IMG/VR virus record: IMGVR_UViG_3300046002_007411
Span: 1 to 64,000 of that record
Length of the DNA stretch: 64,000 bases
From: a virus
Direction: 5' to 3' (one strand)
The notes beneath the pieces were generated by a model. That model saw only the letters and a program-made list of their open reading frames with translations, was not told where the DNA came from and searched no databases. The position numbers were made by a program, and so were the translations under genes. Position 1 is the first letter of the stretch, and each line of letters begins with the position of its first letter. Shown here piece after piece: positions 27,472-29,997 of the stretch.

Positions 27472-28146
27472 TTAACTCCAAAGCAAATTCATTTTGCCCT
27501 GCATGAACTCTCGAGCTGTTAGGGATTTTCCTGTGCGATGATCTTGTACAGCATCATCTTGAAATCGGATAGTGCGGATTTTATCTCCACGCTGTCCACT
27601 GCCAATCTGTATTTTGCGCTTGTGATTGTGTTTGTTGTTTTGGGACTCTGCGTGTTGATTTTCTATCAACACTTGCAGTGCCAGCAGCGCATTGCTGTAG
27701 CTATTTACCCGACTACGAGTTTGACTTGTGGTTGTAAAACCCGTGGGTATATGACGTAAACGGCAACTGTTGGCGTGTTTGTTTCTATGTTGGCCGCCAC
27801 AGCCTGTGCCGCTAAACCATGAGATTTCTATATCCTGGGGATTTATGATGTTTTTTTGATTATCGTGGTAATCAATAACAGCTACAGTCACGGTACTAGT
27901 ATGAACTCTACCGCGTCTTTCAGTGGGAGGAACACGTTGCATACGCAACCCCCCAGCTTCTTGATCTAGTTGTGAGAGATCTTGACCTTGAACAACAAAG
28001 CTATAGAACCCCGGTGCTTGCTGCTCGTGACTAACCAGTCAACCCAGGGCCAAGGCCAGCCGGCGATAAGCGCGGGCTAGGTCTTGAACAAATAACTTGC
28101 TATCTTCGCCGCCTTCAGCAGCACGTATCTCAATTATTTTTTTCAT
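27472..28146 (-). CDS. class I peptide release factor (RF1-type, lacking domain 1) with in-frame UGA at codon 36
   Basis: MKKIIEIRAAEGGEDSKLFVQDLARAYRRLALALG*LVSHEQ...EAGGLRMQRVPPTERRGRVHTS...GGQHRNK...KIRTI; single frame 28146-27472, TGA at 28039-28041. Confidence 0.85.
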
Positions 28147-28191: not shown

Positions 28192-29613
28192 TCAGGCTTG
28201 AATAACCTGATAGCGATCACTTTTAATGGTTTGCTTCATTATGGCTTGGGGTGTGAAAGTTTCAGCAGCCAAAATGCTGGTCATAATGCTGGGACTAAAT
28301 CCGCTTACCAGGGCAGAACCTTGCTGGTCAAATCTCACCGGACTGTTTCCAGTGGCATTGGGCCGAGCATTCAAGTTCCACCAAACAAGACGTGGTAGCT
28401 CATATCCTGCCTGCTTGAACATGCTGCGAGCTAGATCCCATGCACTGACACTTACGCCGTGAGCTAAGCCGGAGTCAAACTCCATGTCACTTAGCACCAA
28501 CAGATATCGGGGCATTTGGTCAGCAGCTAGTTGGTTTACTATAGCCACTTGCAGAATGCTGCGAAATGCGCTTTCCAAGTTGGTATTATACCCCATGTTG
28601 TCGCGCATTTGCTGTAGCTTTGCCAAGAGATCACCTTTGAGAATGTCAATGTGACTGTCGCGTGTGAAGGTCAGCCACATGTCCCGGAAGGCGCCTTGTT
28701 GCTTGTCGGCAATATAGAGACCTAGGCTGATAGCCACCTGCATGCAAGTGAGCCCGGTACCTTGTTGGCCGCCCACAGGGGCACTCATGCTGCCGCTGAC
28801 ATCCACCATGGGCAAAATGCTGTTATCGCCGAGATAGTTGGGCAAAGCCTGCCACTGAGCTAGAGCCACTTGTGGATCGCCGCGAGTCACACTGCGGATG
28901 ACATCATAGGGATAAACAGCCTGAGCGTTTACATGCCCTTGTCCAGTTTGCAGACTTTGCTTCCACTCAGCATAACGTAGGGGATCTTGGCGATTAAAAG
29001 CCTTTTGATATCTAGCCGCAGCAACACTGGGAACATGATTATAGTTGATTTCCTGCCACTGCCGGGCACACATGGGAGTTTCCACAACAGTTGTCAACTC
29101 CACAAGCATTTTACGCCAGGCTTTTGGTGAGTAGTTGATATACCCACGCAGACGATTGGCAATAGCACCCTGACGAGGCATCCATTTTGCAGCCAAAGCG
29201 TTACCTTGCTTGAGTGCGCGGATAATCATGTCGGCAGCCAATAGCTGCATGCGAGCTGTAGAGAAAATCAAAAGATCGTCCCACCGTCCGTATTCGGGAA
29301 TACAAGCTAGATTGGCTTCCACACTGGCTGGATGATTTTTTTCCAGCCAGCGTAGAACTTGTCGGAAAATTTCCCGTTCACCAGCCCCTTGACGAATATC
29401 ACGTGCCCAAAACAAAACTTGCATGGCACTTAGGGCGTCGTGCTGATAAGCTCGTTCAAATGCGGTAGTGATATCTTTGCCACGGCTTGCGCCAATGGCA
29501 AAGAAAAGATCCACAACTGGATCGGCACTGGTGTCATATGTGACCATGCCATTTGCTGTTGTTGCTACAACAGCAGAATTTTCCACGGCCTGGGCAAAAG
29601 TGATTGTAGTCAT
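28192..29613 (-). CDS. DUF2828 TROVE/Ro60-like protein with C-terminal VWA domain
   Basis: T.NG, DLFF, RDIR.G.GER, YGRWDDL, AAKW.PR, VPS.A, MIDAS DVSGSM, SDMEFD, WWNL, VSGFS. Confidence 0.85.
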   Translation of the reverse strand: MTTITFAQAVENSAVVATTANGMVTYDTSADPVVDLFFAIGASRGKDITTAFERAYQHDALSAMQVLFWARDIRQGAGEREIFRQVLRWLEKNHPASVEANLACIPEYGRWDDLLIFSTARMQLLAADMIIRALKQGNALAAKWMPRQGAIANRLRGYINYSPKAWRKMLVELTTVVETPMCARQWQEINYNHVPSVAAARYQKAFNRQDPLRYAEWKQSLQTGQGHVNAQAVYPYDVIRSVTRGDPQVALAQWQALPNYLGDNSILPMVDVSGSMSAPVGGQQGTGLTCMQVAISLGLYIADKQQGAFRDMWLTFTRDSHIDILKGDLLAKLQQMRDNMGYNTNLESAFRSILQVAIVNQLAADQMPRYLLVLSDMEFDSGLAHGVSVSAWDLARSMFKQAGYELPRLVWWNLNARPNATGNSPVRFDQQGSALVSGFSPSIMTSILAAETFTPQAIMKQTIKSDRYQVIQA

Positions 29614-29625
29614 AAAATCTCCTAA

Positions 29626-29683
29626 CAGGTTGGCGTTTTGTGCTACAAGAGCTTGCTATTAAAGGTTTTGCTGCAACCAACCT
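29626..29683 (-). ncRNA. CAGCAA stem-RNA unit D (abuts the SD of the DUF2828 gene)
   Basis: AGGTTGG-TTG-CAGCAA...CCAACCT-G. Confidence 0.7.
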
Positions 29684-29707
29684 TGAATTAATTCAAGTTT
29701 AGATAAA

Positions 29708-29752
29708 CAGGCTGGGGTTCTTTTTTCCAAAAAATATTGCTGTACCCAACCT
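29708..29752 (-). ncRNA. CAGCAA stem-RNA unit C
   Basis: AGGTTGG-GTA-CAGCAA...CCAGCCT-G. Confidence 0.7.
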
Positions 29753-29804
29753 TGATGTTTCCCAGCCTGCTAACGCAGGATGTTCCACATTTAGCTTTTA
29801 TAGT

Positions 29805-29861
29805 CAGATTCGACTATGGAATTGAACCATTTTCATATCCTTGTTTTGCTGAAACGAATCT
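29805..29861 (-). ncRNA. CAGCAA stem-RNA unit B with T-arm-like hairpin
   Basis: AGATTCG-TTT-CAGCAA...ATGG-TTCAATT-CCAT...CGAATCT-G. Confidence 0.7.
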
Positions 29862-29880
29862 CGATAGTTACCAGGAAACA

Positions 29881-29997
29881 CAAGATCAACTTTTTGCCTC
29901 TTGCTCTACCCTTGAGCTACCGCCCCATTTATGGGGGAGCGGATTGGATTCGAACCAATAACACCTAGGTTGATTTTTGATTTGCTGTAATGATCCT
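29881..29997 (-). ncRNA. CAGCAA stem-RNA unit A with circularly permuted tRNA-like module (YrlA/Y-RNA-like)
   Basis: AGGATCA-TTA-CAGCAA...T arm ATTGG-TTCGAAT-CCAAT, CCGCTCC-C-CCA, TAAAT, GGGGCGG, D arm TA-GCTC-AAGGGTA-GAGC...TGATCTT-G. Confidence 0.8.

Follow-up and report, generated by a model that had tools for sequence, protein, structure and literature searches.

What are the four repeated units that lie in the non-coding gap upstream of a 473-aa open reading frame (ORF) of the virus record IMGVR_UViG_3300046002_007411, and what are they for? The stretch analysed here, called the window, is the first 64 kb of this IMG/VR record, which is 111.7 kb long with a completeness estimate of 27%. 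A first-pass annotation, made from the letters alone, had described positions 29626-29997 as four tandem RNA units with a 7-bp stem and the motif CAGCAA, and had compared their build to that of Y RNAs. The four units are confirmed, and the span runs exactly from the 3' G of unit 4 to the 5' A of unit 1. Ro60 and its Y RNAs form a conserved RNA-surveillance particle that is known as a human autoantigen, and in bacteria Ro60 and Y RNAs have been linked to exonuclease targeting and to the response to damage of transfer RNA (tRNA). Our data suggest that the units of this phage are probably Y-RNA-like partner RNAs of a second, sequence-divergent Ro60 lineage, made from the leader of the gene that encodes the ring protein.

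All four units share one design, in which a 7-nt 5' arm that starts with AG is followed by a 3-nt spacer, CAGCAA, a variable insert, an A-rich stretch, a complementary 7-nt 3' arm ending in CU or UU and a single unpaired G, the two ends being joined as a 7-bp stem (Table 1). We refer to the constant part, stem and motif, as the handle. The array occupies a gap of 409 nt (30022-29614) between the stop codon of a small upstream ORF (30025-30023) and the ATG at 29613, and the units lie 13-384 nt upstream of the Ro60-like gene on its strand. The genes around the array are all on the minus strand, which makes minus the sense of the RNA. The pattern AGN8CAGCAA occurs 11 times in the window compared to 4.5 expected, a count that 0 of 100 shuffles reached, and four of these 11 sites, on one strand and within 330 nt, are the four units; by a Poisson estimate the chance of such a cluster over the whole window is about 1e-6 or less. 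A search of Rfam at gathering thresholds gave no match in the window, blastn of the locus against cultured phages gave no match, and in the literature on DUF2828/DUF7788 and on Ro-like proteins or Y RNA in phages we found no Rfam family or paper on this RNA-protein pairing.

In order to see what is kept in the units, we compared 168 loci in which the gene has a homolog, taken from Felix O1, IMG/VR and metagenomes, each oriented with the gene on the plus strand. A mechanical scan for stem, spacer and CAGCAA found 317 units on the gene strand compared to 44 on the opposite one, with 130 different 7-mers in 310 distinct units and the consensus (U-rich) A-G-G-W-U-N-N / N-U-N / CAGCAA ... A-rich / N-N-A-W-C-C-U / G-U-U. 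For a control free of any selection for pairing, every CAGCAA site was taken and the 7-mer in register was tested for a downstream 7-bp partner. On the gene strand such a partner is found at 304 of 527 sites, compared to 117-150 when the 7-mers are reversed, shifted or shuffled, whereas on the opposite strand it is found at 41 of 249 sites, no better than the controls.

A covariance model (R1) trained on 37 short units gives unit 4 a score of 40.8 bits (E 3.2e-8) and unit 2 a score of 31 bits (E 1.2e-5), both being members of the training set, and scores unit 3, which is outside it, at 29.8 bits (E 2.5e-5). Over the 111.7-kb record R1 finds these three units and nothing else. Unit 1 is missed because R1 cannot span long inserts, and it rests on the pattern scan and a separate alignment. 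Among 161 loci from phages, metagenomes and bacterial chromosomes, R1 matches 95 times in the 81 that are viral and 53 times in the 80 from prokaryote assemblies, and 148 of 148 matches are on the gene strand; of the 80 matches in viral loci with a full flank, 68 fall in the 400 nt upstream of the gene. On the alignment made by R1 the stem is 98.6% paired, 7 of 7 pairs have changes on both sides, and pairing falls to 25-42% when the partner is slid by 1-3 columns. This alignment leans towards the model that made it, a bias from which the strand result and the CAGCAA-site control are free. The covarying stem proposed from the four units of the window is strongly borne out across homologous loci. 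In 81 distinct units the motif letters C, G, C and A never vary, nor does the unpaired G that follows the 3' arm, and 75 of these units have a U two bases before the motif. That CAGCAA is invariant and the spacing always 3 nt, as first proposed, is true of the four units in the window but not of the family, in which position 2 of the motif varies (A in 64 of the 81 units, C in 14) and the spacer has 2 or 3 nt.

The protein encoded downstream of the array points in the same direction. Its AlphaFold2 model, built from 23 homologs (predicted local distance difference test, pLDDT, 83; predicted template-modelling score, pTM, 0.80), is a predicted ring of HEAT-like repeats followed by a vWA domain. 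When this model was compared to the PDB with Foldseek, the top 13 matches were all Ro60 (1yvr, 9kop, 2i91, 2nvo, 9nen), over the whole length, with E-values of 1.7e-8 to 1.6e-6 and template-modelling scores of up to 0.64. These structures come from Xenopus, human, Deinococcus and the Thermus phage phiLo, and the lower-ranked matches are only to isolated vWA domains. The residues of the MIDAS motif (DxSxS, T, D), namely D271, S273, S275, T344 and D376, are invariant in the 23 homologs, which are 52-72% identical. The best reading of the model is that the DUF2828 protein has a Ro60 fold and probably represents a second lineage that has diverged in sequence.

The RNA and the gene also travel together while their surroundings change, as far as can be judged from the loci compared. 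Homologs of the gene are present in 710 cultured-phage records, which include Felix O1-type phages, jumbo phages, mycobacteriophages (whose records name the product "Ro-like RNA binding protein") and phages of Listeria, Staphylococcus, Enterococcus, Campylobacter and Bacillus. In one relative whose protein is only about 32% identical (L007), seven units stand in a row upstream of the gene and one stands downstream. In Felix O1 (NC_005282) same-strand units lie between tRNA genes just downstream of the DUF2828 gene, and in many metagenomic relatives the gene is within a tRNA array. The likeness to the small RNAs or spacers of phage tRNA arrays ends there: the units are unannotated in the Felix O1 record and are defined by the handle, not by tRNA features, and ARAGORN finds neither a tRNA nor a transfer-messenger RNA in the window or in the whole 111.7-kb record. 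In bacterial chromosomes (isolate or complete genomes) the pair stands amid unrelated housekeeping genes, such as purA, DegV and ABC-F in Enterococcus sp. LJL51, a two-component system in a Lachnospiraceae isolate, and OsmC and LysR in Nodosilinea. As it stands alone among such genes, the pair behaves as a self-contained module of two parts. With covariation, strand specificity, linkage to one gene and a predicted Ro60 fold behind it, the proposal that the handle is a protein-binding RNA motif gains support, and binding by the ring protein is what we would predict.

Table 1. Positions of the array, the gene downstream of it and the elements between units in the window.
Feature	Position	Strand	Description or source
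Unit 1	29997-29881	-	AGGAUCA-UUA-CAGCAA...UGAUCUU-G, 117 nt, one G-U stem pair
Unit 2	29861-29805	-	AGAUUCG-UUU-CAGCAA...CGAAUCU-G, 57 nt
Spacer hairpin	29779-29766	-	CCUGC-GUUA-GCAGG, between units 2 and 3, read from sequence
AGGCUGGG	29768-29761	-	Overlaps spacer hairpin; alternative 5' arm for unit 3, perfect 8-9-bp pairing with the 3' arm of unit 3
Unit 3	29752-29708	-	AGGUUGG-GUA-CAGCAA...CCAGCCU-G, 45 nt, one U-G stem pair
Unit 4	29683-29626	-	AGGUUGG-UUG-CAGCAA...CCAACCU-G, 58 nt
Ribosome-binding site AGGAG and start codon of Ro60-like gene	29611-29625	-	Sequence, ORF list
Ro60-like ring protein gene, 473 aa	28192-29613	-	Pfam DUF2828 and DUF7788 (vWA-like), phrog_850 'RNA-binding protein'

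What the units carry between their constant ends differs from one to the next, and the first description of the inserts (a tRNA mimic, a T arm only, a U/A-rich one and an unstructured one) is accurate on sequence and folds. The insert of unit 1 consists of a T arm (AUUGG-UUCGAAU-CCAAU), a 7-bp acceptor-like hairpin (CCGCUCC...GGGGCGG) and a D arm (GCUC-AAGGGUA-GAGC), in this order a permuted tRNA-like module that only unit 1 of the four possesses. Unit 2 has a T-arm-like hairpin (AUGG-UUCAAUU-CCAU), unit 3 a short U6/A6 hairpin and unit 4 no strong fold. The YrlA model of Rfam (RF02553) matches unit 1 with 31.7 bits (E 9.5e-5), which does not reach its gathering score of 69; the match runs through the T arm, hairpin and D arm, and the part of the model with the Ro-binding motif aligns poorly. 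The same model has no match to units 2-4. Seven units of the unit 1 type from different loci have the same order of T arm, hairpin and D arm with compensatory changes in all three helices, and in their alignment pairing survives changes on both sides at 13 of the 22 predicted pairs; in L001, a locus 97% identical to ours, the differences from unit 1 are confined to loops and linkers. Because the order of the modules is shared and the helices are compensatory across seven loci, unit 1 is, on the evidence of sequence, a real tRNA mimic of the YrlA kind on a different handle. Arm-like hairpins in inserts outnumber those in controls (T-arm-like 24 compared to 0-3, anticodon-loop-like 51 compared to 8-17), counts that are a hint only, as the scan is crude and long "units" may include true tRNAs.

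Inserts of other types were seen in the relatives. Many short units just before the gene have a 5-bp hairpin with a 7-nt loop of anticodon form, most commonly CUUGUAA and also CUGGAAA, CUGCUAA or CUGUUAA (L023, L032, L034, L039, L047, L053, L061, L087, L145 and L162), and by their sequence these hairpins look like mimics of an anticodon arm. A second recurrent long insert, present in units of about 100-125 nt in L099, L106, L123, L131, L168, L102 and L129 and absent from the window, has the hairpin GUGAG-UUUCGAUUU-CUCAC and then a conserved AAAAAGUAGAAA before the 3' arm. This second type, with its UUUCGAUUU loop, is not tRNA-like and has no Rfam match.

How far does this system resemble the Ro60 systems that are already described? 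Ro60 binds Y RNA on its outer surface and takes misfolded RNA into its central hole. Known Ro60 loci encode a tRNA-like RNA and one or more further Y RNAs, such as one with a T arm or a plain hairpin, no more than 4 kb away on the strand of the gene; these RNAs are often upstream and sometimes cut from a single precursor, and bacterial Y RNAs carry GNCGAA(N0-1)G near the 5' end as a probable binding motif (Chen et al. 2014, PMC4201824). The Ro60 of Thermus phage phiLo binds two upstream Y-like RNAs (Yrl1/Yrl2) and forms complexes with the PNPase of the host (PMC12135203; PDB 9KOP, 9L5Y), and Iyer et al. 2021 mention no more than ROT/TROVE proteins of some jumbo phages, which have a tRNA-like partner. 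The system reported here shares with Ro60 and YrlA/YrlB a predicted ring of HEAT repeats with a vWA domain and its MIDAS motif, several small RNAs beside the gene on the same strand and often upstream, and an RNA built of an end-to-end stem, a conserved unpaired motif by the 5' arm and a variable module. It also has one tRNA-like RNA per locus and another with a T arm only, as in YrlB of M. smegmatis. Its arrays are longer, however, with 4-8 units. For YrlA RNAs the expected place is at most 4 kb from a Ro60 ortholog, on its strand; here the units lie on the strand of the gene, 13-384 nt upstream of it, and its protein has the predicted Ro60 fold but is not annotated as TROVE. The Y-RNA-like build that the first-pass annotation saw, a constant stem and motif with a variable module, holds with a sub-threshold YrlA match for unit 1 only. 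So does its remark that the canonical Y stem is not matched; YrlA meets unit 1 through the tRNA-like part alone. By analogy the system appears to work like a Ro60/Y-RNA particle, yet by the tests of membership it belongs neither to YrlA nor to TROVE.

If the units are partner RNAs of this kind, the following mechanism can be drawn. The units would be transcribed together with the gene as its leader; a promoter and terminator scan found no terminator-like site between units and gene and no convincing promoter for the array, and we read array and gene as one transcript. A TTGACA-17-TAGAAA read by hand at 30045-30017 as the promoter of the array is weak and fails the -10 rule of the scan. The units would probably be cut out of the leader as RNAs of 45-120 nt, in each of which the 7-bp end stem would leave U-N-C(A/C)GCAA unpaired on the 5' side, facing an A-rich strand, and a single G free after the 3' arm. 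This constant handle would dock on the ring protein, as the conserved stem of Y RNAs docks on Ro60, and the variable insert would set what the particle meets: a tRNA-like body in unit 1, a T arm in unit 2 and short hairpins in units 3 and 4. The inserts may tether the ring to tRNA-handling enzymes or exonucleases, or may act as tRNA look-alikes, and during infection the particle could survey, repair or protect tRNA and other structured RNAs. The translation genes of the phage and the tRNA-array context of its relatives suggest a role in keeping tRNA or structured RNA functional in infection. As the last unit abuts the ribosome-binding site, protein bound there could also limit its own translation.

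A likeness to the handle is also found outside phages and bacteria. Class I RNAs of Dictyostelium, on which the earlier papers are reportedly Aspegren 2004 and Avesson 2011, are small RNAs whose function has been unexplained since 2004. According to Kjellin et al. 2021 (PMC7919456), these RNAs are 42-65 nt long (about 60), start with AAG, end with CUGU, have a covarying end stem of 6 bp and carry an unpaired 11-nt motif beside the 5' arm; the RNAs are reported to be unique to dictyostelids. The published search pattern for D. discoideum Class I RNAs is GTTGRCCTTACAGCAA...GTCAACTG (PMC5054030), and the 11-nt motif in this species is CCUUACAGCAA, in which positions 3, 6, 9, 10 and 11 are nearly invariant. 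The phage units agree in size (45-58 nt for units 2-4), in a short end-to-end stem that is kept in pairing and not in sequence, in ends of the form (A)AG...CUG(U), in an otherwise variable remainder and in clustered genes. In the window the ends are cAAGG...CCUGUU in units 3 and 4, aAAGG...CUUGUG in unit 1 and cGAGA...UCUGAC in unit 2, and the consensus of the phage family is (U/A)(U/A)AGG...CCU-G-U-U. The motif by the 5' arm ends in CAGCAA in both, and the letters at the nearly invariant dictyostelid positions 6, 9, 10 and 11 (C, C, A, A) also vary little or not at all among the phage units, in which the motif reads N-N-N-U-N-CAGCAA; the conserved U stands one base nearer the motif than in the dictyostelid numbering, and the distance from stem to CAGCAA is likewise off by about one base. 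Class I RNAs differ further in that they are eukaryotic, have their own DUSE promoter about 60 nt upstream and are reported absent outside Dictyostelia. No tRNA-like inserts have been described for them, and in the literature found they are unlinked to a DUF2828 gene, their proven binder being a protein with an RNA recognition motif (RRM).

Compared by published descriptions, the likeness of the handle to Class I RNAs is real at the level of the signature. It is possible, though we propose it only tentatively, that the phage and bacterial handle RNAs and the Class I RNAs are one ancient family, with the DUF2828 Ro60-like ring as the common partner from phages to eukaryotes. If this is true, Class I RNAs would acquire a candidate for their protein partner and RNA surveillance as a candidate function, and common descent would make the long-standing question of what they do directly testable. 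Eukaryotic proteins with DUF2828 and DUF7788 were seen in plants, fungi (Mortierellomycota, Ascomycota), Naegleria gruberi, two mites and a chrysophyte, some of them fused to other domains, for example thioredoxin-like or GDSL lipase. A search from a fungal DUF2828 protein named no dictyostelid among the ten AT-rich-looking matches that were looked up, which included Naegleria, mites and the chrysophyte.

Several observations weigh against the units being partner RNAs of a Ro60-like ring. The fold energies of the single unit sequences do not differ significantly from those of shuffles (z -0.8 to -1.3), and because these energies are unremarkable the case rests on the comparison with relatives. 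The relationship to Ro60 rests on a predicted fold: Pfam TROVE (PF05731) does not match the DUF2828/DUF7788 protein even at E-values of up to 10, and phmmer against the PDB matches no chain by sequence, Ro60 included. The units carry U-N-C(A/C)GCAA and a 3' G and not the GNCGAA(N)G or GGUCCGA of the known Ro60 systems. The whole record is without a tRNA gene, RtcB or a TROVE protein, so that a context of tRNA repair is not visible here. For Class I RNAs, which carry the same signature, direct binding has been shown for one protein only, and this is the RRM protein Rnp1A/CIBP (PMC7919456). Finally, the transcription and processing of the units, their physical binding and their role in the cell are inferred.

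There are three other ways in which the array could be explained. The units might be purely cis-acting parts of the leader, that is, autogenous operator sites or elements for the processing or stability of the DUF2828 message. The position of unit 4, whose 3' G stands directly before UUAGGAG, N5 and the AUG of the gene, would suit such a function, as would the finding that 41 of 58 related loci likewise have a unit that ends 9-41 nt ahead of the gene, and the lack of a terminator-like site between units and gene. Many units, however, are far from the start codon, downstream of the gene or between tRNA genes (Felix O1, L007, L147, L196), and arrays of 4-8 units with elaborate, conserved tRNA-like inserts exceed what an operator needs. 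Autoregulation through the last unit is compatible with partner RNAs of the ring protein and does not replace them, and we regard a purely cis-acting leader as rather unlikely. It is quite unlikely, too, that the units are free RNAs with some other partner, such as a host RRM-type or tRNA-binding protein, and that their linkage to DUF2828 reflects a shared pathway. Rnp1A/CIBP as the direct binder of Class I RNA sets a precedent for such a partner, and enzymes that act on tRNA would be expected contacts of tRNA-like modules (Chen et al. 2014, PMC4201824). Yet RNA and gene stay linked on one strand in phages, bacteria and bins labelled as archaea, amid neighbours that all differ from locus to locus, and this is how a direct RNA-protein pair would behave; the protein, moreover, has the predicted fold of a known RNA-binding ring with partners of this kind.

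The pieces of tRNA in units 1 and 2, and the location of the gene inside a tRNA array in many relatives, could also mean that the units are decayed tRNA genes, spacers of tRNA arrays or repeats at the level of DNA (inverted repeats or a small mobile element) with no function as RNA. We consider this highly improbable. What the units have in common is the handle, which is unlike any part of a tRNA, and ARAGORN finds no tRNA in the window. Their strand specificity of 148 to 0 would not be respected by a DNA repeat, nor would a DNA repeat tolerate G-T where the units have G-U pairs, and both the pairing of the stem, which survives changes on both sides, and the conserved unpaired letters speak for RNA. 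If the units are partner RNAs of a Ro60-like ring, a second Ro60 lineage, invisible by sequence and with an RNA handle of its own, would greatly enlarge the Ro60 system, to hundreds of cultured phages as well as bacterial chromosomes. Its presence in cultured phages would provide easy laboratory models for the function of tRNA-like Y RNAs during infection, and the handle is simple enough for automatic annotation, which could account for many of the "empty" spacers within phage tRNA islands.

The genes that surround the array encode topoisomerase II subunits, a NUDIX protein, a TilS-like PP-loop enzyme, a glycosyltransferase, a deaminase, a release-factor-like protein, IF3, ClpX and Hsp20, a set such as very large phages that carry translation-related genes of their own typically have. 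Over 17000-39600 of the window, an unusual set of host-like genes is present, those for IF3, ClpX, Hsp20, the TilS-like enzyme, a membrane protein of the Bax-inhibitor-1 family and an arginase-family enzyme; this set fits a very large phage, of whose estimated genome the record would hold 27%.

The next gene after the Ro60-like gene (27472-28146, minus strand) is a shortened homolog of class-I release factors with 224 codons, which comprises the C-terminal half of PCRF and an RF-1 domain with GGQ. It has an in-frame TGA at 28041-28039 (codon 36) within the PCRF domain, also present in the near-identical L001, and the PCRF match crosses this TGA on read-through (E 9e-19). The TGA aligns with what we take to be a Trp of E. 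coli RF1. The window's remaining long ORFs show that TGA is not generally read as sense here, and the one in this gene could serve readthrough or recoding for self-regulation, as in bacterial prfB, or could mark a pseudogene. A fifth handle-like match, 28032-27886 (AGUCACG-AG-CAGCAA...CGUGACU-G-U-A), begins 7 nt past the in-frame TGA, a curious position, and was rejected as a unit: it is inside the release-factor-like coding sequence, occurs elsewhere only in L001, and is of a quality that arises a few times by chance in the record. It is probably due to chance.

One further element lies within the array itself, between units 2 and 3. Here AGGCUGGG is followed by ACAUCA at the place where CAGCAA would stand. 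Both the spacer hairpin and AGGCUGGG are kept in L001 and L002, two relatives too close to be informative. Judged by its letters and its pairing with unit 3, the AGGCUGGG element may be a decayed half unit or a switch between alternative pairings.

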